From: Escherichia coli
GTDB taxonomy: Bacteria > Pseudomonadota > Gammaproteobacteria > Enterobacterales > Enterobacteriaceae
Length of the DNA: 64,000 nt
Strand: one strand, 5' to 3'
Assembly (NCBI RefSeq): GCF_044324785.1
Contig: NZ_CP172127.1
The position numbers were made by a program, and so were the translations under genes. Below, in pieces: positions 2,380-64,000 of the stretch (the stretch's first letter is position 1; every line of letters starts with the position of its first letter). Below the pieces are notes generated by a model. It was given only the letters and a program-made list of their open reading frames with translations, did not search any database and was not told the origin of the DNA.

Positions 2380-2463
2380 TATACTTAGCGATTCATTAAC
2401 AATACAGCTTGAATAGTGTGATTTTTATAAACATTGATGACCAATGCCATGCAAATTTAAATA

Positions 2464-3795
2464 TCAACACCACGTTATCTGTGCTCTGCCATTTTGCTTA
2501 CTTTTGTATAACCGTTCATCTGCCAGCAATTTCAACCGTTCAATGTTATTCATGCACTCATCTGTACTGGCAACTCCTATGCTGCAACTACAATTTAACC
2601 CACCGATTGCGAAATGAACAACTCTGTGCAAAATTCTTGATAGTTTATTTTTATCTTTCTCATAATAAATAATAGCAAACTCATCACCGCCAAACCGGTA
2701 TATTTCCCCTTCACGACGGGGTAACTCATCTTTAATAAGGTTAACAAGTTTGATGAGTACTTCATCACCAAACAGATGGCCAAACTTATCATTAATGGTT
2801 TTAAATTTATCCACATCAAATAGACACAGGTAGCCAAAATTCTTGCTCAGCATCTTGATTTCCTTATCAAAACTCCGACGACCAGAAGCCCGAGTTAATG
2901 CATCACAAGTGCCAAAGTCATATATCTCTCGAATTGCATTAATCTCTTCCGTATTAAAGAATAGATTTTCTCCACATAAATCATATTGATGATTCGATAA
3001 TATAGATTCTTTTTCCAATCTACCCTTATTTATAATATTTCGTAGTAATTTAATATAATAAACATACAGTATAACTGCAGATATTGCCGATGCAAAAACG
3101 AATAGCATACATATATAGAGATATTTACTTTTTTTATAGGCAACAATAAACATCATTTCTGGAAGGTAAGAATACGACAGAGTGATAGCTGACATCTCAA
3201 ATACAGCATCATTTATCAAAAAATCATCACCTGTGATTTTCTTTTCATTATCATTAATATCATAAAATGAGATATAGATATCTTCTCGTTCCCCTGACTG
3301 ATTTCTAATCAAAGATAAATAACGTTCAGGATCTACCACTGATATCAAAATTGTTCGTTTGGCAATGGGATGAGCATAATAAACATAGTACTTATCTTTT
3401 AAACCAATAACACCTCTCTCAAATTCGTTCATTACTCGAATAGAGGAAACTATGTCGCCACAAAAATCATCCCCTTTCGTTGTAACTTTGATACATTTAC
3501 CATCGCTAATAATATAAGGACCGAGATCATACAAATATCCAGGATTTTCATAGCCAGCAAAGCTATTGCGTATTTTTTTTACCAATTCTTCTGGGGCAAT
3601 ATCTAGTTCATAAAATATATCATTAGATACTGAGCGGCGATACTCAGAAACATTAGCTATTGCAAGCCCACTATCTACAATAGATACCTTCACCGAATTA
3701 ATGCGGCCCTTAACATAAATGGTGTATAAATAACAAGTTACTACAGCGACGAACAAAAAACAGATTACTGCCGCCTTTTTCTTATATTTGAACAT
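2464..3795 (-). CDS. Membrane-anchored diguanylate cyclase (GGDEF domain) with predicted periplasmic sensor region
   Basis: 443 aa; N-terminal TM, ~190-aa loop, second TM, then a GGDEF domain with an intact RFGGDEF motif. No obvious RxxD I-site immediately upstream of the motif. AT-rich; 4-bp gap to the upstream EAL gene. Confidence 0.8.
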   Translation of the reverse strand: MFKYKKKAAVICFLFVAVVTCYLYTIYVKGRINSVKVSIVDSGLAIANVSEYRRSVSNDIFYELDIAPEELVKKIRNSFAGYENPGYLYDLGPYIISDGKCIKVTTKGDDFCGDIVSSIRVMNEFERGVIGLKDKYYVYYAHPIAKRTILISVVDPERYLSLIRNQSGEREDIYISFYDINDNEKKITGDDFLINDAVFEMSAITLSYSYLPEMMFIVAYKKSKYLYICMLFVFASAISAVILYVYYIKLLRNIINKGRLEKESILSNHQYDLCGENLFFNTEEINAIREIYDFGTCDALTRASGRRSFDKEIKMLSKNFGYLCLFDVDKFKTINDKFGHLFGDEVLIKLVNLIKDELPRREGEIYRFGGDEFAIIYYEKDKNKLSRILHRVVHFAIGGLNCSCSIGVASTDECMNNIERLKLLADERLYKSKQNGRAQITWC

Positions 3796-3799
3796 TGCT

Positions 3800-6148
3800 T
3801 TATTTTCTTTTTTTCGGTTTGCTGTCTATATGCCATTCTGAAAACGGTAGCGGTTTCTGGTATAAGTATCCCTGAACATGAGAGAATCCTAATTTTTGCA
3901 ATTCTCTGGCCTGACTTTCAGTTTCAACACCTTCAGCTATTACCGGCATATTTTCTTCACGAGCAAGGCTGGATATAAAGTACACAATTTTGTTAGTTTC
4001 GTTGAAAATACCAGAGGTAAACTCTGAATCAATTTTAATACTATCAGGTCTTACTTTATAAAGTTTTTTCAGGTCAGCTAATCCACTACCGAAATCATCA
4101 AGAGAAATCTTGATACCGTTTTCTTTTAAAATGTTTATATTATTGTAAAAGCTATCATTTATATCTTTTACTGCTGACTCGGTGATCTCCAGACAGATTT
4201 GTTCAGCATTTACATCAAATGCATTAATTAAAGTAAGAACACGAGTGTGGAAGTCAATTTCATTTAATTGCCATGGAGAAACATTGATATGCAGGAGAAA
4301 ATCGTTAGCAACCTCATATTCACGGCTAAAGGCACCAAATTCGCTAATAGCCGTTTCGAGAATAAAATCACCCAGTTCTTTAATTAATCCTATTTCTTCA
4401 GCAACAGGTACAAAAATTGATGGCGGTATTGCCCCATTTTCGACGGATAACCAGCGGCATAACGCCTCAGCACCGACAACCCTATTATTATCCATATCAA
4501 CAATCGGTTGATATACTAAATAAAGTTCACTACTCAAAATCGCTTTTTTTATATTTCCTGCCACCCAGACCTTTTGATCAAGTTCATGAACTTTGATATC
4601 ATCATAAAACATAAATTCAGATTCTTTATTTTCCCGCATAGCTGTTAATGCCAGTTTCAACTTCCCTTCATAAATCGAAACATTTTCCCCTGAAAAAGTT
4701 TCACAAATGGCAATCTTATGAATATAAATATTTCTTATGCAAAATATATGTTCAGGGAAGTTTAAAACAGATAATCTTTCGATGAACTCTTCGCAGTGCG
4801 TGTGGCACAGCAACAAGTATGTTTCAGTTGAGAATTTTACGATATCACAATATTTTGAATATTTTTGTGAAATCTTCGATTTTATATCATTAACAATTTC
4901 ATAAAATTTCTGACTTCCATATATCGCCTCAACAAACTCTAATCCATAGATGCAAAGCATACCAACTGCCAAATAGGTTTTATTATTAGTTTCAATAACA
5001 GCCTTATTAATATAGAAACAACTTCCTTGTTCATAGGACACAAGATTAAGTAAACGGTCCATACGCTCCTTGTATTTATCACTGATATTATTAATGATTT
5101 TTTTGAGTTCAACAATTTCGCTACTATCATTTTGCACAATATCAATTGTGTCATTGCGATATACTGAGTTAGCTAATTTTTTCAGATGTTCTATTAGTTT
5201 ACTGGATTCTCGTTTAATTTTTTTTGTTATATTTTCAACGATATACCATAATAAACAGAAACAAACCAAGCCACATAAAAACATCAATGTAAAATATTTA
5301 TTGATGTTTGCATCTTCTGCTTTTTGATAGTAAAAGTAATGGAATCTGACATCAGGAAGCCTGGGGAGTGAGATAATATTGTCTGTATAGTTTCCACTAT
5401 TATTACTTATGTTATAACTTCCCGATGACTCACGGACAATAAGATGTAACATTGATTTTTCATTACCTACCATTATCCTTTTATTTTGTTCCATGAATAG
5501 AATATCAGCATCACTACCTAGTTTATTTAAAAAATTACTGAAATATTTTTCATCAAGATCCAGATGCATTAACTTCAGAGCAAATGAATCTTTTTCTTCT
5601 TCGGATGGCCGTAGTGAAAACGAAAAACATTTTTTTCCGGCAATACCATAACAATTATACCATGGTGACCATTTTGAATAAGTCCCTGCCGGTAATTTAT
5701 TCCAGGGGCGTGATTCCGGGTTAAAGTAGTTATCGCTAATATTACCATCGTCCCCAATAAAAGGTTTGCCGGCTTCTGATTTCCCCAGGAATTTTACCTC
5801 ACCATCCTCAGTTCGAATAAAGCTAAGATAGTTTCCATTATTGAGCATTATCCCTACTAAATTAACAGCGTCTATTTTTTTCATGCGATGAAGGACTGCT
5901 CGCTTTATTTCACCTTCATCATTTAACAGATAAATTGCATCTTTTAATGCATCAGCCTCTTTTTCAACTTTAGAAAAAAAATTATTCAAATTGTTATTGA
6001 TGAGTATAAGGTTAATCCGTGAAGAGTTTTCTGCTATTTTTTTATGGAAGTCAATTGCGGTAATAAATGAAAAGACAATATAGACAGTAACAGCTAATAT
6101 AACCGCAGTGTTAAATCTTGAGTTTAATTTTTCGGTAATGCTATACAT
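3800..6148 (-). CDS. Membrane sensor c-di-GMP phosphodiesterase (EAL domain) with large periplasmic region
   Basis: 782 aa; two TM segments flanking a ~260-aa loop. C-terminal EAL domain with conserved YQPIVD, GAEALCRW, EITES, LDDFGSG, IKIDSEF, AEGVETE and QGYLYQKP motifs. First gene of an apparent three- or four-gene minus-strand operon. Confidence 0.8.
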   Translation of the reverse strand: MYSITEKLNSRFNTAVILAVTVYIVFSFITAIDFHKKIAENSSRINLILINNNLNNFFSKVEKEADALKDAIYLLNDEGEIKRAVLHRMKKIDAVNLVGIMLNNGNYLSFIRTEDGEVKFLGKSEAGKPFIGDDGNISDNYFNPESRPWNKLPAGTYSKWSPWYNCYGIAGKKCFSFSLRPSEEEKDSFALKLMHLDLDEKYFSNFLNKLGSDADILFMEQNKRIMVGNEKSMLHLIVRESSGSYNISNNSGNYTDNIISLPRLPDVRFHYFYYQKAEDANINKYFTLMFLCGLVCFCLLWYIVENITKKIKRESSKLIEHLKKLANSVYRNDTIDIVQNDSSEIVELKKIINNISDKYKERMDRLLNLVSYEQGSCFYINKAVIETNNKTYLAVGMLCIYGLEFVEAIYGSQKFYEIVNDIKSKISQKYSKYCDIVKFSTETYLLLCHTHCEEFIERLSVLNFPEHIFCIRNIYIHKIAICETFSGENVSIYEGKLKLALTAMRENKESEFMFYDDIKVHELDQKVWVAGNIKKAILSSELYLVYQPIVDMDNNRVVGAEALCRWLSVENGAIPPSIFVPVAEEIGLIKELGDFILETAISEFGAFSREYEVANDFLLHINVSPWQLNEIDFHTRVLTLINAFDVNAEQICLEITESAVKDINDSFYNNINILKENGIKISLDDFGSGLADLKKLYKVRPDSIKIDSEFTSGIFNETNKIVYFISSLAREENMPVIAEGVETESQARELQKLGFSHVQGYLYQKPLPFSEWHIDSKPKKRK

Positions 6149-18666: not shown

Positions 18667-19421
<755 letters not shown>

Positions 19422-19525
19422 ATCAGCATACTTGTCCTTAGCCTTCTGCAGTGACAGCTGGTAGTACAGCGTGCTTCTGGCCAGCCCTGCAGCCTTTAAC
19501 AGGTCAGACTGGCAGTGTCCGCACC

Positions 19526-20056
19526 TCAGGCTCCGGATGACTTTCGTTTTTTCTCCAGCTCCTGGCGCTTTTTTTCCAGGAGATGCTCCTGCATGGCTTT
19601 CAGATATGCATTTTCTGCGCGAAGATAACGCAGCTCATTCTTCATCTCTTCCGGCGTCATGTTTGCCTCGTTTTCATGGGTATCATCAGAACGGGTCATG
19701 CTTTTCTCCTTCCTGCGCCTGATAAAGGCCTCATTACCAGATTTGCGGTAGCCTTTTATCCAGTTTTTAACCGTGTTGTGGCTGGGAATGTTAAACCGGG
19801 CAGCTACCCGGGGTAGAGACTCAGAATGCCCGAGAGCATAAAGAACCACGCAAAGTTTATCTTCAGGAGAATAGCTACGCTTGTGTCTGCAATCCAGTGC
19901 CCGAGGACCGTGAAGAAGAAAAAGATTAATCCAGTGTGAGAGGCTGGTGTGAGAAAGTTGAAAGAGTTTTGCCGTAGAAATGATGCCTGCATGACCAGCC
20001 AGGTAATGATTTACAGCGGCAAGTTTTACTTCAAATGAATGTTTCATAAACTGCAC
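19526..20056 (-). CDS. IS3-family transposase OrfA (HTH DNA-binding)
   Basis: 176 aa with an HTH region and a C-terminal leucine-zipper-like coiled coil (ELRYLRAENAYLKAMQEHL). Confidence 0.75.
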   Translation of the reverse strand: MQFMKHSFEVKLAAVNHYLAGHAGIISTAKLFQLSHTSLSHWINLFLLHGPRALDCRHKRSYSPEDKLCVVLYALGHSESLPRVAARFNIPSHNTVKNWIKGYRKSGNEAFIRRRKEKSMTRSDDTHENEANMTPEEMKNELRYLRAENAYLKAMQEHLLEKKRQELEKKRKSSGA

Positions 20057-20102
20057 CTTCAGATGTCAGATTATGTCCAACATTTGGGGTGCAGTTCATA
20101 CC

Positions 20103-31489: not shown

Positions 31490-31577
31490 GGTGAGGTGTC
31501 CGAGTGGCTGAAGGAGCACGCCTGGAAAGTGTGTATACGGCAACGTATCGGGGGTTCGAATCCCCCCCTCACCGCCA
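31490..31577 (+). tRNA. serW: tRNA-Ser (anticodon GGA)
   Basis: 88-nt sequence GGTGAGGTGTCCGAGTGGCTGAAGGAGCACGCCTGGAAAGTG...GGTTCGAATCCCCCCCTCACCGCCA with a long variable arm and an encoded CCA; adjacent to infA as serW is in K-12. Confidence 0.95.
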
Positions 31578-40621: not shown

Positions 40622-41494
40622 TCAGAAGAAAATCCAGTTCCATACAGCGCGGGCAACAGAGACCACCGTGTCACGGACGACACGCAGAACCGTACGAGCC
40701 ACAGAGGCAACACAGACGCTCTCCGCCGTGTCAAATATCCGGTCCACCGCACCGGTAAACTGTTCACGGGCCTGCCCCCGGACAGATTCCGTGCACAGCT
40801 CGTCCTGCAGGCGGGTCATCAGGGGACTGGCGGCATGGTCGGGAAGTGCTGTCATGAGCGCACTGACCAGCGTATCCAGTTCCCAGCCGGTGCGGGCCGA
40901 TACGGCCACAACCGGATGTACGGGCCGGAACAGACGGAATACCGCCTCCGTTTTTTCGCGAATGTTCTGTGCCTGTGCGGGAGAAGGCTGAATACCGGCC
41001 ATATCCCATTCATGGCAGGGCTCCGTTTTATCGGCCTGCGTCACCACAAACAGCACCTGCTGATGTCCCCGGTGCAGGATGTGTCGCCAGAAATACTCAT
41101 CCACAGACAGGGCACGGTCATCGGCTTTAATCAGCCACAGTACCAGGTCAAGTTCAGGCAGAATGTCACGGTACAGGGCTTCATACTCTGCATCCCTGTC
41201 CCGGCTCTCGCCCACCCCGGGCAGGTCAGTGATAACCATGCTGTGACCGTGGCCACTCAGACGGAAGCGCCGCACTTCCCGGGTGCCGGCGTGAACATCA
41301 CTGACCGGGGTGACCTCCCCCTGAAACAGTGCATTACAGAGTGAGGATTTACCGGCCCCGCTTTTCCCCATAATGCCAATCACGGGTTCGTGACTGGTGA
41401 GTTTACGCAGATGTTCCAGGATGTGACGGGAAAGTGAGTAAGGCAGGGAAGAAAGTGGTTTTTCAATTGCCTCAATGGCATCAGACGGATTCAT
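40622..41494 (-). CDS. YeeP/YkfA-like GTPase (50S ribosome-binding GTPase family)
   Basis: P-loop GIMGKSGAGKSSLCNALF and DLPG G3-like motif; start taken at MNPSDAIEAI... Confidence 0.75.
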   Translation of the reverse strand: MNPSDAIEAIEKPLSSLPYSLSRHILEHLRKLTSHEPVIGIMGKSGAGKSSLCNALFQGEVTPVSDVHAGTREVRRFRLSGHGHSMVITDLPGVGESRDRDAEYEALYRDILPELDLVLWLIKADDRALSVDEYFWRHILHRGHQQVLFVVTQADKTEPCHEWDMAGIQPSPAQAQNIREKTEAVFRLFRPVHPVVAVSARTGWELDTLVSALMTALPDHAASPLMTRLQDELCTESVRGQAREQFTGAVDRIFDTAESVCVASVARTVLRVVRDTVVSVARAVWNWIFF

Positions 41495-41757
41495 ACATGT
41501 ATTCCCGGTGAAAAAAGACAAAACCCCGCGCACCGGAAAGGTGGCGGGGGATTCACGGAGATAATATCTGTCTGAAATTATTTAGAATGCACCTGGTGCA
41601 CTGCAAAGGAAAGGCAATATTCCGTTCCTCCTCCTTGTCGTGAATACCCCAGGTATCTCACAATGTACACCGACTTACTCCGGGGCTGCCTGAACCACAA
41701 GATTGCTGTAGAATTGCCCCCAATGATTCAGGTCCAAACCAGGAAAATGGATTAAAA

Positions 41758-43167
41758 ATGACAAGTATTCAACAACGAGCAGAACTGCACCGCCAGATAT
41801 GGCAAATTGCCAATGATGTCAGAGGTTCTGTTGACGGATGGGATTTTAAGCAATACGTTCTGGGCGCGCTTTTCTACCGTTTTATCAGCGAAAATTTTTC
41901 CAGCTATATTGAAGCCGGTGATGACAGTATCTGTTATGCGAAACTGGATGACAGCGTAATTACTGATGACATTAAAGACGATGCCATCAAAACTAAAGGC
42001 TACTTCATCTACCCAAGTCAGCTTTTCTGCAACGTAGCTGCGAAAGCAAATACCAATGACAGACTGAATGCAGATTTAAACAGTATCTTCGTTGCTATCG
42101 AAAGTTCTGCTTACGGTTACCCTTCAGAAGCTGACATCAAAGGTTTGTTTGCTGATTTCGATACCACCAGTAACCGCCTGGGTAACACCGTTAAGGATAA
42201 AAATGCCCGCCTGGCTGCGGTTCTGAAAGGGGTTGAAGGGTTAAAACTTGGTGACTTCAACGAACATCAGATTGACCTGTTCGGCGATGCCTATGAGTTC
42301 CTGATTTCTAACTATGCGGCGAATGCTGGTAAGTCAGGCGGCGAGTTTTTTACACCGCAGCATGTCTCTAAGCTGATTGCACAACTGGCTATGCACGGGC
42401 AGACCCACGTTAACAAAATCTACGACCCAGCCGCAGGTTCCGGTTCGCTGTTGTTACAGGCGAAAAAGCAGTTTGATGACCATATCATCGAAGAAGGCTT
42501 TTTTGGTCAGGAGATCAACCATACGACCTATAACCTGGCGCGTATGAACATGTTTTTGCACAACATCAACTACGACAAGTTTGATATCAAGCTGGGCAAT
42601 ACGCTGACTGAGCCGCACTTCAGAGATGAAAAACCGTTTGATGCCATCGTTTCTAACCCGCCGTATTCAGTGAAATGGATTGGCAGCGATGACCCGACGC
42701 TGATTAACGATGAGCGTTTTGCCCCGGCTGGCGTCCTGGCCCCCAAATCAAAAGCTGACTTCGCGTTTGTATTACATGCGCTGAACTATCTTTCGGCCAA
42801 AGGTCGCGCCGCGATTGTCTGCTTCCCGGGTATTTTTTACCGTGGCGGCGCAGAGCAGAAAATCCGTCAGTATCTGGTCGATAATAACTATGTCGAAACC
42901 GTGATTTCACTGGCACCGAACCTGTTCTTTGGCACCACCATTGCCGTAAACATTCTGGTGCTGTCTAAACATAAAACGGATACCAAAGTTCAGTTTATTG
43001 ACGCCAGCGAACTGTTCAAAAAAGAGACTAACAACAATATCCTGACCGATGCCCATATCGAACAGATTATGCAGGTATTTGCCAGCAAGGAAGATGTTGC
43101 TCATCTGGCGAAATCTGTTGCGTTTGAGACTGTTGTCGCGAATGACTATAACGGCTTTGTTGAATAA
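41758..43167 (+). pseudogene. hsdM: Type I restriction-modification methyltransferase subunit HsdM (IC/EcoR124-like), 3'-truncated by IS903; no hsdR or hsdS present
   Basis: N-terminus [47 protein letters not shown]; SAM-binding motif [10 protein letters not shown]; catalytic NPPY motif ([11 protein letters not shown]). The last 4 codons plus stop (GFVE*) are encoded by the IS903 terminal repeat starting at 43153. 469 aa versus ~520 expected. Confidence 0.75.
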
Positions 43168-44209
43168 ATCAGATTTCGGGTAAGTCTCCCCCGTAGCGGG
43201 TTGTGTTTTCAGGCAATACGCACGCTTTCAGGCATACCTGCTTTCGTCATTTTGTTCAGCGCTCGTACCAGGGCCATAGCCTCCGCAACCTGACCATCGT
43301 AGTCACGCAGCGTCAGTGAACCCCCGAACAGCTGTTTTACCCGGTACATCGCCGTTTCCGCTATCGAGCGACGGTTGTAATCTGTTGTCCATTTCCACCG
43401 CGCATTACTCCCGGTCATTCGCTGATTAGCCACTGCACGGTTACGGTCTGCATATTCACCGGGCCAGTAACCCGCACCTTTTCGGGGAGGGATAAGCGCG
43501 CTGATTTTCTTACGCCGCAGTTCATCGTGACATAGCCGGGTATCGTAAGCGCCATCGGCGGCGGCTGACCTGATTTTCCGGTGGGTTTGCCGGATTAACC
43601 CGGGGAAGGCCTCTGAGTCCGTAACGTTGTTCAGCGACAGGTCAGCGCAGATGATTTCATGTGTTTTACTGTCAACGGCGAGATGCAGCTTACGCCAGAT
43701 ACGGCGGCGTTCCTGGCCATGCTTTTTGACTTTCCACTCGCCTTCACCGAAGACCTTCAGCCCGGTGGAATCAATTACCAGGTGTGCGATTTCACCCCGG
43801 GTGGGCGTTTTGAAACTGACATTAACCGACTTTGCCCGCCTGCTGACACAGCTGTAATCCGGGCAGCGTAGCGGAACGTTCATCAGAGAAAAAATGGAAT
43901 CAATAAAGCCCTGCGCAGCCCGCAGGGTCAGCCTGAATACGCGTTTAATGACCAGCACAGTAGTGATGGCAAGGTCAGAATAGCGCTGAGGTCTGCCTCG
44001 TGAAGAAGGTGTTGCTGACTCATACCAGGCCTGAATAGCTTCATCATCCAGCCAGAAAGTTATGGAGCCACGGTTGATGAGGGCTTTATTGTAGGTGGGC
44101 CAGTTGGTGATTTTGAACTTTTGCTTTGCCACGGAACGGTCTGCGTTGTCGGGAAGATACGTGATCTGATCCTTCAACTCAGCAAAAGTTCGATTTATTC
44201 AACAAAGCC
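43153..44209 (-). mobile_element. IS903-like insertion sequence (IS5 family), 1057 bp, without target-site duplication
   Basis: 18-bp terminal inverted repeats GGCTTTGTTGAATAAATC at 43153-43170 and, inverted, at 44192-44209. Length equals IS903 as I recall it. The 9-bp flanks differ (gactataac vs gttacccgc). Confidence 0.85.
43209..44132 (-). CDS. IS903 transposase (DDE)
   Basis: GTG start at 44132 gives a 307-aa product (VAKQKFKITNWPTYNKALINRGSITFWLDDEAIQAWY...); the ORF-track frame extends to 44177. Confidence 0.85.
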   Translation of the reverse strand: MAKQKFKITNWPTYNKALINRGSITFWLDDEAIQAWYESATPSSRGRPQRYSDLAITTVLVIKRVFRLTLRAAQGFIDSIFSLMNVPLRCPDYSCVSRRAKSVNVSFKTPTRGEIAHLVIDSTGLKVFGEGEWKVKKHGQERRRIWRKLHLAVDSKTHEIICADLSLNNVTDSEAFPGLIRQTHRKIRSAAADGAYDTRLCHDELRRKKISALIPPRKGAGYWPGEYADRNRAVANQRMTGSNARWKWTTDYNRRSIAETAMYRVKQLFGGSLTLRDYDGQVAEAMALVRALNKMTKAGMPESVRIA

Positions 44210-45339
44210 GTTACCCGCTCTTCAATCTCATGCAATTGATTATGCAATATCGCATTTTCATCCTTTTGCCCGGCTAATGAGTGGGTAAGCGTCTCAACTT
44301 CTTGCTGTAATGCGGAGCTCCTGGCCTGGAAAAACTCAAGTTCCTTCAGAACCCGATCTTTAAGAGAGAATAGGTACTCTTCAGCTGACAGCGTGGTGAT
44401 CCTATGATGGGCGGCGGCGATAAATTCATCATAAAAATCATCACTCTTTGCATCCAGGGCAACAACAAACTCTTTCACTTGCTGATAAAACGGGTGAAAT
44501 GCCGGACCAGAAATCGTGTTTAAATGCCACTCAAGGAACACGACAACATAGTTTTTATAATCTCTGAGACGGTGTTCCATCATCCCCTGCTGACAGATAA
44601 ACGCTTTAAGCGCCACCAATGCTTCAACAGCACAGCGGTGCGACTCTGCTCGCGTGGCGGATAGGGATTCACTACGGTTGATGGTATGAGAAATTAACGT
44701 TTCATTTAAGACCGAAATTCTGTTCGCCATGAGCATAAATGCGCAGACGAAGAAAAGATCGTTGGTCGTCCTGATTTCCTGAAAGCGAAGCTGATGACTA
44801 GTAATAAATTGACGCCTGAGAAGCTTGTCCCATGGCCACCAGACAAAGGTGCGGAAAAAGTCAGAGGGAATATCCTGGGATGAAAAAAACTTGAGATCAG
44901 GTAACAGCTCCTGGCGCACTGACCACGGCATCGGAGCATAAACCTGCAAGGCGGGATCAAAAGACTGGCTGCGACAGATAACGACATCCGCTTGTATATC
45001 GCTAGCACGTGCGTACATGCGCTCCAACATCATGTTATCGACATAATCGTCGTCATCAAGAAAAATAACGTACTCACCGGTAGCAGCATCCAACCCGATG
45101 TTTCTTGAGCCTCCCCCACCAAGATTTGTCGTGTTGTTAATGACTCTAATTCGTGAATCAGTTTCAGCCAGCGCCGAGACAATCTCTAAGGTATTATCGT
45201 CAGAACAATCGTTGACAATAATGATTTCAATATCATTTAATGTTTGCGACAAAACAGTGCTCAATGTGTCGGAAATATATCCCGCCGCATTGTGCACAGG
45301 GATAATAACGGAAACAGCTATACTCTCTTTTTCAGACAT
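44179..45339 (-). CDS. Family-2 glycosyltransferase; C-terminus replaced by IS903-derived codons
   Basis: N-terminal GT-A fold (VIIPVHNAAGYISDTLSTVLSQTLNDIEIIIVNDCSDDNT ... FLDDDD). The last 9 codons and the stop lie inside the IS903 right inverted repeat (IS boundary 44209). Confidence 0.7.
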   Translation of the reverse strand: MSEKESIAVSVIIPVHNAAGYISDTLSTVLSQTLNDIEIIIVNDCSDDNTLEIVSALAETDSRIRVINNTTNLGGGGSRNIGLDAATGEYVIFLDDDDYVDNMMLERMYARASDIQADVVICRSQSFDPALQVYAPMPWSVRQELLPDLKFFSSQDIPSDFFRTFVWWPWDKLLRRQFITSHQLRFQEIRTTNDLFFVCAFMLMANRISVLNETLISHTINRSESLSATRAESHRCAVEALVALKAFICQQGMMEHRLRDYKNYVVVFLEWHLNTISGPAFHPFYQQVKEFVVALDAKSDDFYDEFIAAAHHRITTLSAEEYLFSLKDRVLKELEFFQARSSALQQEVETLTHSLAGQKDENAILHNQLHEIEERVTALLNKSNFC

Positions 45340-45460: not shown

Positions 45461-46606
45461 TTACTCTTCAACAACATCACGATATGTTTTTAATGTTTTA
45501 TTAATGATCATCACACTCGAGAATTTATCTTGAATGCGTTTTCTGCCATTGATACCCATTGCGACGCGCGTTTCTGGGTTATCCAACAGGAAACCGAGTT
45601 TCTCCGCTAATTCCTCGACAGATTTACTTTTTACAATCAACCCATTATAGTTATTGATAATTAAGCTATCACAGCCACCAACATCATAAGCGATACAAGC
45701 GCGCCCGACAGAGGAAGCTTCCAGCAAGATACGCGGTACGCCTTCGGCGTAGACCGACGGCAAAGCAACGATATTTGATTCTTCAATTAAATCAAATACA
45801 TTAGAGCAATGACCGAGCCAGTTAATCACGCCTTCGCTTTGCCACTTCTGTATCGTCGCCAGCGGAATTGCGTCTTTATCATTCTCAACTAAAATACCGG
45901 CAACATTCAGCGTAAAGTGAATATTTTTATTACTCAGTATTTTTTTGGCTTCAATCAGGTCACCCAGTCCTTTACTCCACAGCATACGGCTGGCAAAAAG
46001 GACGACCGGAACATCACGCTGCTGCTCCAGAGAGTATTTGTAAATCTCTGGATTAATACCCGCGCCATCAATAACAATAGTCTGTTTGTAATCGATACCA
46101 ACCAGATCGGCAAGTTTAGCTCTGTCTTTATCATGTTCGAACATAAACAAACTGCATTTGTTACTGGCGATATACTTATATGCCATAACAGTAAAACTTC
46201 GCAGCAGCTTAAGACAGGCAGACTCTGCGGAAAATACTCGGCCCAAACCGACAAAACTCAGAATAACAGGACGATGGGTACTTTTAGCCAGAAAACCGCC
46301 GATCAAACAGGGCTTGATGGTAATGCAGTGCAACAAATCTGGATTGATGTTTTGAATAATTTTCCGAGCCTTAGAAAAGGCCCGAAAGAAAATCAAAACG
46401 TTGAATGATTGGGCGACAAGTGGAATGTTATGGCAAACAAAACCTAATGTCCTGAATTTTTCCGCTATTTTATCATCGACAAAATGGCTAATAATGTGAA
46501 TCTCATAACCGGCATCTCGGGCGGCAATTGCACGATCGGTCCAATGCAAATCAAAATACCAATCCGAATTTATGAAATAACACAGTTTTTTCATTGCTAT
46601 GTCCAC
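45461..46606 (-). CDS. wbbO: GT4-family glycosyltransferase, WbbO-like (galactosyltransferase of D-galactan I pathway)
   Basis: 381 aa; GT-B C-terminal signature EGVPRILLEASSVGRACIAYDVGG; position matches the last gene of the Klebsiella wzm-wzt-wbbM-glf-wbbN-wbbO order. Confidence 0.75.
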   Translation of the reverse strand: MDIAMKKLCYFINSDWYFDLHWTDRAIAARDAGYEIHIISHFVDDKIAEKFRTLGFVCHNIPLVAQSFNVLIFFRAFSKARKIIQNINPDLLHCITIKPCLIGGFLAKSTHRPVILSFVGLGRVFSAESACLKLLRSFTVMAYKYIASNKCSLFMFEHDKDRAKLADLVGIDYKQTIVIDGAGINPEIYKYSLEQQRDVPVVLFASRMLWSKGLGDLIEAKKILSNKNIHFTLNVAGILVENDKDAIPLATIQKWQSEGVINWLGHCSNVFDLIEESNIVALPSVYAEGVPRILLEASSVGRACIAYDVGGCDSLIINNYNGLIVKSKSVEELAEKLGFLLDNPETRVAMGINGRKRIQDKFSSVMIINKTLKTYRDVVEE

Positions 46607-48666
<2,060 letters not shown>

Positions 48667-50559
48667 TTAGCCAAGAATCGAACGGCGAACTTTATAATAA
48701 TATTTGATGAGCTTATTTCTTCTTGGCGAACCGACAGGAGCATATTTGTTAACATATGGCATTAAAGCTCTTTTAATCTTTGTCTGCAGTAACACGGTTT
48801 GCTGCAGTTCAGTATGTTGGTTAGGTACTACCGTGGCCACAGGTAACTGGCGATAGTAGATTTCTTTCTCCCATGGCGTACTTAAAACATTCTCAAGAAA
48901 ATCATCATAGAAATCGACTTTCTCAGTATTCCATGGTTTGTTTTCACCCGCATAGTGAATCATTTTTGGATTTCTTCTGGCTTGCAAAAAGCGCATATAG
49001 GTTGAAAACTTGAGATTCGGGAAGAAATCATCGGTATTACCATTACCATGGTACACGTTCCATTCTAATGGTAAGAATTTGACTCGGCCAAAGAAGACTT
49101 TGTTCATGATATCCTGATCTAAGAACCAATACTTTTTGGCTTTCAATGCTGACATCAATTGAGCAAAGGTATTCTCTGTAACCATTTGTTCGACATTAAA
49201 AACAATAATCCCGGCCTGAAAATATTCGTCAGGATTAGTCATTCCTAATGTCTTTTTCAGGTATTGCTCTGCAGGCATAATGCCATCATCTGATTCTGAC
49301 ATGGTACCAAACTTCACAAACCCTTCCATGACGATGTCTTTAACAGCGGCAACCAGGTTAGTGCCGATCTCGACATCCAGAAGTGTCGCCAAATCAGCCT
49401 TCACCACGGTGTCAGAATCGATAAACACAACTTTTTTATACTCGCGGAAAAGTTGCGGGATGAACAAGCGCGCATAGGTCGACGCACTAAAATGTGCACG
49501 GGTATGAACATCACTCATCTCAGTGAATGAATTCACATCAAAAAAGCGCAATGATATGTTGTTATGACCAGCAACTAGCTTGATAAGGCGTTGTTTATTT
49601 AAATGACTGACCTTATTTTCCAGAACAACGATATCATAGTTTCTGCTCGCATCAGAATGGAGAACAATTGAATTGATTAATGCCCCGCCACTTAATGCAT
49701 AGTTATTATCAAAACTAATAACAACCGGTACGCTTTCGTCAAAAACGGGCTTTAATTTACCATTAAATGTTTCAGCAGTAACAAACGTGCGCTGTAGTTC
49801 TTTTATTTTTAGCTGTTTATCTTGTTGACATTTGATGATATAGATATTGAATAAACGCTCAGCAATGTGTCCTATAACTCGTTTTTCTTGAGCGTTGTAG
49901 TTATTCATCGAAATCCGATCTTCAAGATTAGACAAAATAGCAAAAAGCCATTCAGAATAATCCAGGAACATGTCTTTGCGCATAACAAACATGTTCGTAT
50001 AATAACCATCAGTTGCATTATTGAATTGTTGAATCGCAGCTTTATATTGTGGATACAGCTCTTCAACGACATCCAGGGCAGACTGATAGTCTTTAATGTG
50101 TAAAAACTCACCTTTTGCATAATGATCAAGGTTATTCTTACTTCCTGCCGATGTTACCGACCATTTTTTGGGTAACAGCAGATCATATCCATCGACGCAG
50201 GTGCTTATGGATTCATCACTTAATCCAAACTGGCTTTCGTATTCGGCATTGATGAGCGGGTAGTTGACTACCCCCCAGTTATCCTCAGGATGATTTTGTT
50301 GTTCTGCAAAGTTCAAGTGTCTGCGGTAATGCATGAATCCCACATAGTCAGCCAGAGATTCATTCTTCCACACCCAGTAGTGGGCCGTCAGCTCACAATA
50401 GAAGGGGTTTTTAAAGGAAATGTTGTCTCCGCTATCATCCCCTTCACAGCCAATATCATTATAAGTATTAGCCTTCCCGACATGCAGTGGTTTAATAATA
50501 GAGGCATTTAGAAAAGCACTGGGTTTGTGGTGACATGTATAAATTTTGATACTATTCAT
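48667..50559 (-). CDS. wbbM: WbbM-like bifunctional glycosyltransferase (N-terminal DUF4422-like domain + C-terminal GT8 domain)
   Basis: 630 aa; C-terminal GT8-like region (VVISFDNNYA...FIDSDTVV). Size and position match Klebsiella WbbM. Confidence 0.8.
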   Translation of the reverse strand: MNSIKIYTCHHKPSAFLNASIIKPLHVGKANTYNDIGCEGDDSGDNISFKNPFYCELTAHYWVWKNESLADYVGFMHYRRHLNFAEQQNHPEDNWGVVNYPLINAEYESQFGLSDESISTCVDGYDLLLPKKWSVTSAGSKNNLDHYAKGEFLHIKDYQSALDVVEELYPQYKAAIQQFNNATDGYYTNMFVMRKDMFLDYSEWLFAILSNLEDRISMNNYNAQEKRVIGHIAERLFNIYIIKCQQDKQLKIKELQRTFVTAETFNGKLKPVFDESVPVVISFDNNYALSGGALINSIVLHSDASRNYDIVVLENKVSHLNKQRLIKLVAGHNNISLRFFDVNSFTEMSDVHTRAHFSASTYARLFIPQLFREYKKVVFIDSDTVVKADLATLLDVEIGTNLVAAVKDIVMEGFVKFGTMSESDDGIMPAEQYLKKTLGMTNPDEYFQAGIIVFNVEQMVTENTFAQLMSALKAKKYWFLDQDIMNKVFFGRVKFLPLEWNVYHGNGNTDDFFPNLKFSTYMRFLQARRNPKMIHYAGENKPWNTEKVDFYDDFLENVLSTPWEKEIYYRQLPVATVVPNQHTELQQTVLLQTKIKRALMPYVNKYAPVGSPRRNKLIKYYYKVRRSILG

Positions 50560-50573
50560 CTTATTACCAATTA

Positions 50574-51314
50574 TTAAGCCATTGCTTGCTTGTAAAGTTC
50601 AATGATTCTCTCTGCTGAGCCAATTTCGCGGAGTTTATGGTTTTCGATCCAAACAACTCTGTCACAGATTTTTTCAACATCACTCATATTGTGGCTAACG
50701 AATAATATCGTTACACCCTTATTTTTGAAGTCTCGTATTGTTTGTATACATTTGGCCTGGAACGAAATGTCACCGACAGCAAGTACCTCATCGATAATAA
50801 GTATATCGGGTTCTACCTGGCTGATGACAGAGAATCCAAGCTTCGCAAGCATACCACTTGAGTACACGCGAATAGGTTCGTCAATGAAATCACCCAGCTC
50901 GGAGAACTCAATTATCCGATCCATCCGTTGCTGAACCTCTTTGCGGCGTAGCCCAAGCAGGGTCGCATTGAGATAAATATTTTCTCGCCCGGTTAATTCA
51001 GGGTGAAAACCGCCGCCTAGCTCAAGCATTGAGGCAACGCGTCCCTGGGTTGTAACAGTGCCTTTTGTAGGCTTAATGACGCCGGCCACCAGCCCGAGGG
51101 AGGTACTTTTCCCTGCGCCGTTACGACCAATCAGCGCTACGGCCTCGCCTTTACCCACGGTGAAGGTAATGTCTTCGATCGCAAGATATTTACGCCCTTT
51201 TAACAGCTGAAAAGCTCTTTTAGGGTGAAATACGAGATCCTTAATTCCTGAGCCAATATGGTGGTAAAGAGGATACTCTTTCGTAACGTGACTAAAGTTT
51301 ATTACTGGTTCCAT
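50574..51314 (-). CDS. wzt: O-polysaccharide ABC transporter ATP-binding protein Wzt (short form, no carbohydrate-binding extension)
   Basis: 246 aa; Walker A GRNGAGKST, signature YSSGMLAKL, Walker B ILIIDE. Confidence 0.9.
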   Translation of the reverse strand: MEPVINFSHVTKEYPLYHHIGSGIKDLVFHPKRAFQLLKGRKYLAIEDITFTVGKGEAVALIGRNGAGKSTSLGLVAGVIKPTKGTVTTQGRVASMLELGGGFHPELTGRENIYLNATLLGLRRKEVQQRMDRIIEFSELGDFIDEPIRVYSSGMLAKLGFSVISQVEPDILIIDEVLAVGDISFQAKCIQTIRDFKNKGVTILFVSHNMSDVEKICDRVVWIENHKLREIGSAERIIELYKQAMA

Positions 51315-52093
51315 TACAAAATCTCTGCAAATCGATATTTTAATTTATTAAAAATACTCAGGCCCACAATTGTCAGGACTAAACCTGTAATGTAAAGGAT
51401 TGAAATATATTCATAATTTAAGACGCCATCCATGAACAGCTGCCGCCAGCTGAGGATCATGCTTGCCAGAGGATTATAGGTAATAATCCAGCTAAATTTT
51501 TCAGGAATCATATCTGACGCATATAATATCGGCGTGCAATAAAACATGAGCATGATACCAAGGCTGACAAATCGCTCTAAATCCCTGAAGAACAGATTTA
51601 GCGTAGAAAATATGATTGAAATACCAAATGTAAAAATCACCTGACCAAGCGCAATAATTGGTACGCCCCAGAGCCATGAGAGCGATGGACGCATACCATA
51701 CACGAACAGGAATGCAATAATCACAGGAATTGTACACAAGAAATGTACCCCTTCCATCATGACATTACTCAATGGAATAACTGAGCGCGGAAAAACTGTT
51801 TTTTTGATTATTTGCGCATTGGCTATAAACGAAAACAAGGAATTTGTCGCCGAGCTGGCAAACCATTGCCACGGAAATAAACCGGTAATCAAGAAAAGGG
51901 TATAATTCGGGATCTGCACTCGCATAACGAGCTTAAAAATGAAATAATATATCATTGCAAAAAGCAGTGGATTCGCAATTGACCATAAGTAACCAAATAC
52001 GCTGCTTTTATAACGTACCTTTAAATCTTTGTTTGTTATAACAACAAGAAGATCAAACAAATACCCTATATTATACTTCATTTTTATACTCAT
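51314..52093 (-). CDS. wzm: O-polysaccharide ABC transporter permease Wzm
   Basis: 259 aa; six-TM ABC-2-type permease; stop overlaps the wzt start. Confidence 0.9.
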   Translation of the reverse strand: MSIKMKYNIGYLFDLLVVITNKDLKVRYKSSVFGYLWSIANPLLFAMIYYFIFKLVMRVQIPNYTLFLITGLFPWQWFASSATNSLFSFIANAQIIKKTVFPRSVIPLSNVMMEGVHFLCTIPVIIAFLFVYGMRPSLSWLWGVPIIALGQVIFTFGISIIFSTLNLFFRDLERFVSLGIMLMFYCTPILYASDMIPEKFSWIITYNPLASMILSWRQLFMDGVLNYEYISILYITGLVLTIVGLSIFNKLKYRFAEIL

Positions 52094-62607: not shown

Positions 62608-62830
62608 AGTTCCCGTCTTTTATCATTCAGTTACCAACCTGAATATCTGAAACAATGCCAGACATCGGTTACAAACTGGCATTGTTTTTATCATTCAATT
62701 TATAAACTACAATATTACGTATTATTTTTACATTTATGTCATTGCAAATATCAGACAAACAAGCATTATAACTCAATAAGTATATTTTTCGTGATTACAG
62801 ACGACATCTGCAAATCTGTGAGATGTGATT

Positions 62831-63985
62831 TCATCGCTGGTTTTCCATAATCTGAGACATCACATAATCCGCCCATGCCTGCATCATCGGTATACGCTGA
62901 TCCAGCAGATCAGTCCGGTGATATGCCGCCTCAACCTTATTTTTCAGCGTATGGGCAAGCGCCCTTTCCGCCAAATCCCGCGAATATCCCTGTTCGCTAC
63001 ACCAGTCCCTGAATGTTGAACGAAAACCATGTGCTGTAGCCACTCGTCCGGGTATATCACTGATGGCCTTCTTTTTACGCAGAAAACTCGTCAACACCAT
63101 ATCTGAAAGGATCTGCTGCTTTCTGGGAGAAGGAAACACCAGTTCGTCATGCAGACCACGTATATTTTCCAGAACGTGAATGGCCTGTCGGGATAAAGGA
63201 ACACGATGCTGTATCCTGGCTTTCATTCTTTCTGCGGGTATCGTCCATATCCGCTTATGAAAATCAATTTCAGCCCAGCGCATTCCCCTTGCTTCGCCCG
63301 AGCGGGTTGCTGTCAGTATCACCATTAATAACAGTGCCCGGGTAACATTATAAGGTTCATCTGTATACACACTGGTCGCCACAAAAAGCGGTAACTGCCT
63401 CCAGGGCATTGCCGGCTGGTGTTCATCACGTCCTCTTGATTGCTGTGGAAGCAAATGATCAACCACATCAACAGGATTCGCCACACAAAAACCATGCGCC
63501 CAGCCCCACTGCATAACAACATGAATGCGCTGTTTAACCCGGCTTGCCGTTTCTGACAAGGTTAACCAGACTGGACGCAGTGTTTCTGCCACGTCCGCAG
63601 CCGTAATCGAATCCAGCGTTTTTGCTCCCAGTTGAGGAAACGCGTAATTCTCAAGCGTCGATAACCACTGCCTTACATGCTTTGGATTTTCCCATCCAGG
63701 AGACAGTTCTGCATGTACACGCCTGGCTGCATCGGCAAATGTTGGGATAACAACTTTTTCAGCTTCAGCCTTTTTAATCTCCAGAGGATCATCACCTGCA
63801 GCAAGTTGCTCTCGCATTATCCGGGCAGTACGTGCAGCTTCAGCAATACTGACCTCAGGATAAGTTCCCAATCCAGCATTACGCCTTTTTTGTGTCACCG
63901 GACTTACATAACGAAAAACCCATTTACCCCTCCCCTTTACTGAAGAAGGATGAAGAGTCAGTCCTGTAATTCCCCCATGGGGCAA
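62831..63985 (-). CDS. int: Tyrosine recombinase / P4-type integrase (N-terminus may extend beyond the window)
   Basis: N-terminal arm-binding region (GGITGLTLHPSSVKGRGKWVFRY), AYPEVS-like motif (GTYPEVS) and C-terminal catalytic region (HGFRSTFRDW ... AYHRTDLLDQR). The ORF-track start is a TTG and the frame is still open at position 64000. Confidence 0.85.
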   Translation of the reverse strand: MPHGGITGLTLHPSSVKGRGKWVFRYVSPVTQKRRNAGLGTYPEVSIAEAARTARIMREQLAAGDDPLEIKKAEAEKVVIPTFADAARRVHAELSPGWENPKHVRQWLSTLENYAFPQLGAKTLDSITAADVAETLRPVWLTLSETASRVKQRIHVVMQWGWAHGFCVANPVDVVDHLLPQQSRGRDEHQPAMPWRQLPLFVATSVYTDEPYNVTRALLLMVILTATRSGEARGMRWAEIDFHKRIWTIPAERMKARIQHRVPLSRQAIHVLENIRGLHDELVFPSPRKQQILSDMVLTSFLRKKKAISDIPGRVATAHGFRSTFRDWCSEQGYSRDLAERALAHTLKNKVEAAYHRTDLLDQRIPMMQAWADYVMSQIMENQR

Positions 63986-64000
63986 TGGTTTGTCATCAGG

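Follow-up and report, generated by a model that had tools for sequence, protein, structure and literature searches.

Adjacent deletions and cointegrates have been reported as products of IS903 (PMC11708052; PMC12670165). In the adjacent deletions and inversions of IS903 and IS903B, which arise by intramolecular replicative transposition, the element stays in place, one of its junctions is preserved while the other is new, no 9-bp duplication is present, and the deleted DNA is contiguous with one end of the IS. We observed the same features around a single IS903B within a 64-kb window (the whole stretch of Escherichia coli DNA analysed, 64,000 nucleotides). The deletions in the literature come from laboratory plasmid assays, whereas the window holds a natural, chromosomal and strain-specific case, with no mechanistic difference visible.

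The genes on either side of this IS also have well-described counterparts. EcoR124I/II is a type IC restriction-modification system, and residues 1-465 of the HsdM encoded in the window are identical to EcoR124II HsdM at 463 of 465 positions, including both catalytic motifs. HsdS, HsdR and the HsdM C-terminal tail are missing from the window, however, and the gene is therefore a remnant rather than a system. The tail of type I methyltransferases forms a four-helix bundle with HsdS, and assembly depends on it (PMC9613975). In Klebsiella, wbbY-wbbZ decide the presence of D-galactan II, a difference that distinguishes serotype O1 from O2 and influences serum resistance (PMC4237132), and IS effects on the O1/O2 phenotype are described there (PMC7556023). 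The window has likewise lost wbbY-wbbZ and kept the D-galactan I operon including wbbM, but here the genes belong to a serW island of E. coli and come on top of the normal O-antigen locus.

Structure of the locus

The tRNA-Ser gene serW (31490-31577) is the site of the CP4-like genomic island carried in the window. To the left of hsdM, in a conserved position, lies the YeeP-like GTPase gene of the CP4-type island (40622..41533, minus strand). The EcoR124-type hsdM itself (41758..43152, plus strand) retains 465 of 518 native codons, with both the AAGSGS and NPPY motifs present. These residues align with residues 3-467 of the 520-aa EcoR124II HsdM (PDB 7bst_D) with 2 mismatches and cover positions 1-480 of 515 in the TIGR00497 profile. 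A natural HsdM read from the same start codon is 518 aa long (locus L010), leaving 53 native residues missing at the C-terminus (LSVSSYVE...EVQK). Beyond codon 465 the frame continues for four IS-encoded codons (GFVE) to a stop, so that the chimeric reading frame ends at 43167. The initial annotation, which had described an hsdM with intact SAM-binding and NPPY motifs shortened by about 50 C-terminal residues, was thus accurate, and the alignment shows that this HsdM is not naturally of this length. Its statement that hsdR and hsdS are absent also held: tblastn of the whole 64-kb window with HsdS and HsdR proteins from two intact relatives returned zero matches. Measured against type I restriction-modification systems, the locus has the HsdM motifs and lacks HsdS, HsdR and the HsdS-binding tail of HsdM.

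Directly adjoining hsdM is IS903B (43153..44209, minus strand), 1057 bp long with perfect 18-bp terminal inverted repeats (GGCTTTGTTGAATAAATC; 43153-43170 and 44192-44209) and an intact transposase reading frame (43209-44177, minus strand). Its length, repeats and single intact transposase gene all agree with IS903B (IS5 family, IS903 group), and it is base-for-base the element annotated by RefSeq as 'IS5-like element IS903B' in SMS-3-5, CREC-2, F1053, EC21, CUVM53 and ET120 (0 of 1057 mismatches to the annotated copies, with transposase WP_000654812.1, at loci L001, L005, L009 and L014-L018). One copy was found in the window; in many E. coli genomes the element is multicopy, and the median genome has 2-3 places that match it. 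The 9-bp flanks are unlike, the left one being GACTATAAC and the right one GTTACCCGC, and the 9-bp target-site duplication looked for at the two ends was absent, as the initial annotation had reported. Perfect 9-bp duplications were found at other IS903B copies (GCGCTGAAC at locus L003, CAGCAGAGC at locus L010). A later rearrangement explains the missing duplication in the window. Just outside the element there is a 4-bp inverted symmetry (TAAC before the IS and GTTA after it), which we treated as chance, since the two flanks stem from events of different ages.

The left junction (43152..43153), the recent one, joins hsdM nt 1395 to IS903B at the outer edge of the repeat that follows the transposase gene. 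The right junction (44209..44210) joins the transposase-proximal end to codon 377 of a family-2 glycosyltransferase gene, here called GT2 (44179..45339, minus strand), and this codon straddles the boundary. As had been noticed before, the last 9 codons of GT2 are read from the IS; 377 native residues are followed by ALLNKSNFC, giving a chimera of 386 aa. The intact allele encodes 413 aa on plasmid pF3_13_1_3-1 (locus L011), and 36 residues are consequently missing in the window. By reading of its sequence, the C-terminal tail of GT2 appears coiled-coil-like. The RefSeq entry for the chimeric protein, WP_001290565.1, should be understood as a truncated, IS-chimeric glycosyltransferase.

GT2 is followed by the remaining genes of the D-galactan I-type, ABC-transporter-dependent O-polysaccharide operon (45461..52081, minus strand). 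From the annotation of sequence-identical loci it consists, all on the minus strand, of wbbO-like (45461-46606), wbbN-like (46607-47497), glf (47494-48648), wbbM (48667-50559), wzt (50574-51314) and wzm (51314-52081). The D-galactan I set of wzm, wzt, wbbM, glf, wbbN and wbbO, assigned by gene order and annotation and for WbbM also by a match to PDB 6u4b (1082 bits), is the same set as in Klebsiella O2a (PMC11294581).

Missing DNA and junctions in other genomes

We compared the window with the island of E. coli SMS-3-5, and the flanks were 100% identical, the left one for 3,015 bp and the right one for 14,348 bp. Between the two points joined in the window, SMS-3-5 carries 8,985 bp, containing the last 52 native hsdM codons, an IS1, wbbY, wbbZ and several IS remnants. 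The wbbY and wbbZ genes of this stretch, absent from the 64-kb window, match the homologues EcSMS35_2255/2256 (740 and 269 aa), which have been published as 99% identical to K. pneumoniae proteins. The window thus kept the IS, with one ancestral and one new junction, and in SMS-3-5 the missing DNA is contiguous with that IS end, as in an adjacent deletion.

The two junctions were surveyed in 5,426 complete E. coli genomes, and the hsdM junction also in 72,556 plasmids. As a contiguous sequence, the exact joint between hsdM nt 1395 and IS903B was absent from all 5,426 genomes and from all 72,556 plasmids. The IS903B-GT2 junction was identical in 44 of the 5,426 genomes, and GTTACCCGC was the flank at the GT2 end of every IS903B copy examined. 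Given 44 genomes with one junction and none with the other, the GT2 truncation is a separate and much older event than the hsdM junction. The opposite end of IS903B had at least 13 different neighbours, including nested hsdM truncations and one inversion, an apparent one-sidedness that is partly an ascertainment effect because the GT2 junction was the search query. In other strains IS903B and more of GT2 had been lost through other elements.

In islands of the SMS-3-5 type the variable endpoints are nested, lying in an IS3 (SMS-3-5, EC21), downstream of wbbZ (23CRST042), in an IS1 (CREC-2) and at hsdM nt 1395 (the window). In islands of the F1053 type they lie successively nearer to hsdM (CUVM53, F1053, GDSC2239PM) and then at hsdM nt 1029 (WCHEC050613), and in W444 the endpoint is at about hsdM nt 372. 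In ET120 there is a pair of identical IS903B copies that face opposite ways; each keeps one old junction, and the 9-bp target AATTGAATG lies inverted at the two new junctions. This is the inversion counterpart of the deletions, with an inverted 9-bp duplication, and the same IS copy has thus been active in relatives. The endpoint 9-mer of WCHEC050613, GCGCTGAAC, is also the 9-mer duplicated by a simple IS903B insertion in the hsdM of a P1-like plasmid; these are independent events, since 41 of 1029 nt differ between the two hsdM alleles. By this reuse the endpoints look like transposase targets.

The initial annotation had called for a search for the intact ancestral forms, and both were found, with alleles near-identical to the truncated genes: the order GTPase-hsdM-hsdS-hsdR is intact in a sister island, and the intact GT2 is the plasmid allele above. 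Full-length hsdM is present in six island relatives (SMS-3-5, CREC-2, F1053, GDSC2239PM, CUVM53, ET120), and in all six the next annotated feature is an IS1 or IS1 remnant. Where the junction was read, in F1053 and CREC-2, IS1 begins directly after hsdM codon 517, which is 3-4 nt ahead of the overlapping hsdS start codon of the intact system. Hence hsdS and hsdR had already been lost at the IS1 boundary, and hsdM adjoined the polysaccharide genes before the IS903B event of the window. An IS903-mediated deletion or recombination had been proposed to account for the unlike flanks and the truncated genes, and this part stands; that it also removed the rest of the type I system does not, and the idea that it fused that system to the polysaccharide cluster was wrong.

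Origin of the hsdM junction

We consider the following stepwise history, ending in an IS903B adjacent deletion, to be probably the best explanation, the one-step mechanism being inferred. The island would once have held an EcoR124-type hsdM-hsdS-hsdR operon downstream of the YeeP-like GTPase gene. An IS1-associated event would then have cut the operon at hsdM codon 517, thereby setting a Klebsiella-type galactan module (wbbY-wbbZ ... GT2-wbbO-wbbN-glf-wbbM-wzt-wzm) beside the orphan hsdM, and IS903B would separately have become fixed at GT2 codon 377. Finally, in the lineage of the window, the resident IS903B would have deleted the 8,985 bp adjoining its transposase-distal end, with IS903B and the GT2 junction staying in place and a new target inside hsdM (9-mer GACTATAAC) being joined. 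The presumed mechanism is intramolecular transposition, in which both IS ends attack a nearby target on their own DNA molecule, the stretch in between leaves as a circle, and the retained element keeps one old and one new flank, so that no target duplication would result. The reused target 9-mer and the ET120 inversion lend indirect support to such a one-step, transposase-dependent event. The immediate ancestor was, we infer, SMS-3-5-like, 23CRST042-like or CREC-2-like; since it could be any of these, the deletion may have taken place in several nested steps.

The same structure, identical in sequence to the one-step product, would arise if a second IS903B had inserted at hsdM nt 1395 in the same orientation, with a 9-bp duplication, and RecA-dependent recombination between the direct copies had then removed the 9 kb. 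IS903 transposes mainly by simple insertion and replicative events are the minority, simple IS903B insertions with perfect duplications do occur in such an hsdM (GCGCTGAAC) and in hsdS (CAGCAGAGC), and the multicopy state noted above would favour this route. The intermediate it calls for, an IS903B end followed by GACTATAAC and downstream hsdM, was found in 0 of 5,426 E. coli genomes, however, and each of the 13 or more neighbours seen at the variable end of the one resident copy would require its own insertion and recombination. We regard this two-step route as possible but less likely. Much less probable is a false junction made in assembly by the collapse of repeated IS903B copies of the source genome. 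Misassembly classically occurs at IS copies and the exact junction is unique among the genomes and plasmids surveyed, but the window holds only one copy, SMS-3-5 is otherwise perfectly collinear with it on both flanks, and many genomes that were finished independently have one-sided junctions of the same kind. That IS903B simply inserted at a pre-existing hsdM-glycosyltransferase junction, or that both genes are of natural length, has the bare adjacency in its favour; this reading is refuted by the missing duplication, by the shortening of both proteins and by the greater age of the GT2 junction, and we give it practically no weight.

Plasmid sources for the junctions were also considered and rejected. 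Recombination with the hsdM::IS903B of a P1-like plasmid was suggested by an initial collinearity that proved misleading; the plasmid IS903B sits elsewhere (at hsdM nt 1029, or in hsdS), and the plasmid hsdM is ~95-96% identical whereas that of the window follows the island allele at 100% as far as the junction. Derivation of the old GT2 junction from the arrangement on pF3_13_1_3-1 by a single inversion did not fit the orientation of the IS, and the IS of that locus is 96.5% identical. Compared with the plasmids, the chromosomal forms have neither the GT2 tail nor the acyltransferase gene, and their wbbY-wbbZ is inverted.

Consequences for hsdM and the surface polysaccharide

Whether by the classic IS903 adjacent deletion that we prefer or by an equivalent IS-IS recombination, the rearrangement is of an already known and well-understood kind. 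Its value is mainly one of bookkeeping, explaining the missing target duplication at the IS903B of the window, and for teaching the relatives offer a clean natural example in which IS903 deletions are nested, one IS903 inversion is present and a target hot spot is used again. An HsdM without HsdS would already have been useless, and the C-terminal tail on which HsdS docks has now been lost as well; we take the hsdM of the window for a dead remnant rather than an orphan methylase that merits a methylome experiment.

The removal of wbbY-wbbZ is the one item of possible biological consequence. With these genes deleted and the D-galactan I operon kept, the strain is predicted to have lost D-galactan II and to retain D-galactan I. 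A broader proposal is that the GT2-anchored IS903B is a recurrent generator of one-sided deletions and inversions that diversifies the surface polysaccharide, with a functional and selected chimeric GT2 and with deletions that are adaptive antigenic change rather than neutral decay, which we think doubtful. If it were true, strains that keep wbbY-wbbZ would be O1-like, with D-galactan I and II, and strains like that of the window would have D-galactan I only.

The IS903B element and its truncated neighbours

The window is E. coli chromosome, with a CP4-like island extending from the tRNA-Ser gene serW (31490-31577) to past the window end. Island contents were identified via annotated near-identical loci. 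The left portion contains DUF4942, a CbtA/YeeU toxin-antitoxin pair, an antirestriction gene, DUF932, an Ag43 adhesin and a YeeP-like GTPase, while the middle runs from hsdM to IS903B. An ABC-transporter-type O-polysaccharide operon follows (the family 2 glycosyltransferase gene GT2, wbbO-like, wbbN-like, glf, wbbM, wzt, wzm), and the far end carries IS debris, P4-like genes and an integrase adjoining clpA. The operon holds the Klebsiella D-galactan I gene set (PMC11294581), and its WbbM matched the solved Klebsiella WbbM (6u4b) with 1082 bits. The integrase (window end, about 62800-64000) is about 32 kb away from serW and not tRNA-adjacent, and the island could consist of two parts, in tandem or as a composite: a CP4-like element and a P4-like one (integrase, AlpA, DUF3987, inovirus Gp2-like genes). 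Elsewhere in the window, a 1.43-kb IS3-family element (18667-20098; orfA of 176 aa plus orfB) was observed between lolA and ftsK, at a site empty in strain CREC-2. Upstream of ycaM, a block of low-GC appearance (259-6148) had no alignment to CREC-2 at that position; its translations read as a BcsA-like glycosyltransferase (706 aa), a GGDEF protein (443 aa) and a GGDEF-EAL protein (782 aa).

The single IS903B copy in the window (43153-44209, 1057 bp) has perfect 18-bp terminal inverted repeats (GGCTTTGTTGAATAAATC) and an intact transposase ORF (43209-44177, minus strand), and matches at every base the RefSeq-annotated IS903B copies from several complete E. coli genomes. No target duplication was detected on comparing its two 9-bp flanks, since GACTATAAC and GTTACCCGC differ, as the initial annotation had stated. 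The 4 bp outside each end (43149-43152, 44210-44213) are inverted complements, TAAC / GTTA; because the flanks date from events of different age, this symmetry is probably chance or the reflection of a symmetric target preference.

Left of IS903B, the EcoR124-type methylase gene hsdM (41758-43152) retains exactly 465 native codons, including the SAM-binding (AAGSGS) and NPPY motifs, and its frame extends 4 codons into the element (GFVE-stop). These 465 residues correspond to residues 3-467 of the 520-aa EcoR124II HsdM (PDB 7bst_D) with two substitutions, and span positions 1-480 of the 515-position TIGR00497 hsdM profile. An intact hsdM was found in a sister island at another tRNA-Ser, in strain SWYHX138, with the order GTPase-hsdM-hsdS-hsdR. 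There hsdS is split by an IS903-like element with a perfect 9-bp duplication on its flanks, and HsdM is 518 aa (C-terminus ...EVQK), its stop codon overlapped by the hsdS ATG. The window copy is therefore short by 53 residues (LSVSSYVE...EVQK), close to the 50 or so proposed initially. hsdR and hsdS are absent, as reported: HsdS and HsdR queries taken from intact relatives had no tblastn match in the 64-kb window. In type I methyltransferases the HsdM C-terminal tail and the HsdS coiled coil form a four-helix bundle, and M-S assembly is abolished when the tail is deleted (PMC9613975). Because this orphan HsdM, already without a specificity subunit, now also lacks the HsdS-docking tail, we infer that no methylase activity is to be expected.

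On the right side, GT2 (44179-45339, minus strand) crosses into IS903B at codon 377 and continues for the nine IS-encoded codons recognized earlier (ALLNKSNFC). All elements of the initial observation thus prove correct. The intact gene, encoding 413 aa and followed by an acyltransferase gene, was found on three E. coli plasmids (L011, which is pF3_13_1_3-1, L022 and L023); the window form lacks its last 36 residues. RefSeq WP_001290565.1 ('glycosyltransferase family 2 protein', 386 aa), labelled intact in all inspected IS903B-terminated loci, is a truncated protein whose last nine codons derive from the IS903B inverted repeat (window 44179-44209), and the 413-aa form (WP_016247608.1) was seen on plasmids only. 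In strain fS54a (L019 3856-4341) and an ET220 plasmid (L020 3723-4744), IS903B is gone and more of GT2 is lost, with the truncated gene adjoining ISKpn26 or IS4321/Tn3-family transposase genes. The GT2 region is a general hot spot of IS-driven erosion.

Age of the junctions and earlier loss of hsdS and hsdR

The IS903B-GT2 junction recurs unchanged in 44 of 5,426 complete E. coli genomes, with the flank GTTACCCGC in all copies inspected. The hsdM-IS903B junction was observed in none of these genomes and in none of 72,556 plasmids; CREC-2 was the sole full-coverage match, but 296 extra bp separate the two halves. The two junctions thus differ greatly in age.

The annotated feature directly after a 523-aa hsdM is IS1 or an IS1 remnant in SMS-3-5, CREC-2, F1053, GDSC2239PM, CUVM53 and ET120. 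Where the junction was read (F1053 and CREC-2), codon 517 is the last native hsdM codon before the frame passes into IS1 (...EVQ, then VMTPTY-stop), 3-4 nt ahead of the expected hsdS start. The IS1 boundary is therefore where hsdS and hsdR were lost, and hsdM already lay beside polysaccharide genes, so the initial proposal that the IS903 event removed the remainder of the system and fused it to the polysaccharide cluster is not sustained. IS1 abuts codon 517 in both island sequence lineages, which are 2% divergent in hsdM (SMS-3-5, L009 3172-3940; two further relatives, L001 21824-21949 and L005 4810-5580). Beyond IS1 the lineages differ, with wbbY-wbbZ in one and an integrase gene in the other, and an IS1-wbbY-wbbZ-IS903B-GT2 module was also found beside dsdC in BY63 and TUM1881. 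The shared IS1 boundary, the differing far sides and the same module at dsdC suggest that the polysaccharide module was moved by IS1.

IS903B as the probable agent of the deletion

The window and SMS-3-5 are 100% identical over 3,015 bp left of IS903B and 14,348 bp right of it, and SMS-3-5 holds 8,985 bp (L009 3016-12000) between hsdM nt 1395 and IS903B. This stretch contains the hsdM tail, IS1B, genes for a glycosyltransferase (740 aa) and a pyruvyl transferase (269 aa), an IS256 fragment, a frameshifted ISKpn26, transposase fragments, an IS3 and a second, truncated IS3.

While the GT2 junction stays the same, the other IS903B end has at least 13 different neighbours. SMS-3-5-type islands, whose hsdM is identical to that of the window where compared, have endpoints at IS3 (SMS-3-5), further into IS3 (EC21), downstream of wbbZ (23CRST042), inside IS1 (CREC-2) and at hsdM nt 1395 (window). 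F1053-type islands (21 of 1029 nt different in hsdM) end after two small ORFs (CUVM53), inside an integrase gene (F1053), deeper in the same gene (GDSC2239PM) and at hsdM nt 1029 (WCHEC050613). The endpoint in W444, of uncertain affiliation, is near hsdM nt 372, and further variants occur in BY63 and TUM1881. Together the endpoints form nested deletion series. The initial proposal of an IS903-mediated deletion, a textbook phenomenon, is right in outline.

Strain ET120 carries a pair of identical IS903B copies in opposite orientations (L018 15440-16496, L017 4001-5057); one retains the left junction of SMS-3-5 (GGCTTCACT), the other the GT2 junction. The island DNA between them, about 20 kb, is inverted and the 9-mer AATTGAATG is present at both new junctions in inverted orientation, an arrangement that represents the IS903B-mediated inversion counterpart. 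The endpoint 9-mer in the chromosomal island of WCHEC050613, GCGCTGAAC (L007 4279-4287), is also duplicated by an independent simple IS903B insertion in hsdM of a P1-like plasmid (L003 7033-7041, 8099-8107). Since 41 of 1029 nt differ between the plasmid and the chromosomal hsdM allele, the shared 9-mer reflects target reuse and not shared ancestry, which suggests a hot spot for IS903 targeting.

Adjacent deletions and cointegrates are documented products of IS903 activity (PMC11708052, PMC12670165), and we consider it highly probable that IS903B mediated the event by one route or another; an assembly collapse at the hsdM-IS903B junction is unlikely. The best-supported reading, which we favor with some reserve, is an adjacent deletion through intramolecular transposition, in which IS903B would remove the stretch from hsdM to itself in one step. 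If a second IS903B copy had first entered hsdM in direct orientation, homologous recombination between the pair would yield a product identical in sequence, and we regard this two-step route as possible but doubtful; its predicted intermediate was found in 0 of 5,426 genomes, which is weak evidence against it.

Loss of the D-galactan II genes

In SMS-3-5, wbbY (740 aa) and wbbZ (269 aa) occupy L009 4042-7171; they are missing at window 43152/43153, and neither was found elsewhere in the window. A published study, which describes these D-galactan II genes for K. pneumoniae O1 and E. coli SMS-3-5, identified EcSMS35_2255/2256 as wbbY/wbbZ and reports 99% identity to their K. pneumoniae counterparts, which suffice for adding D-galactan II to D-galactan I (PMC4237132). 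Based on lengths and product types, we infer that the 740-aa and 269-aa SMS-3-5 genes are EcSMS35_2255/2256. The wbbY product is 804 aa on plasmid pF3_13_1_3-1 (L011 4504-4828) versus 740 aa in chromosomal copies (L009 3981-4305), a gap of 192 bp at an internally repeated segment.

Because the window retains the D-galactan I operon without wbbY-wbbZ, we predict that this strain still makes D-galactan I but no longer D-galactan II, so that its accessory polysaccharide would have shifted from O1-like to O2-like. This loss would be a more relevant consequence of the deletion than the HsdM defect.
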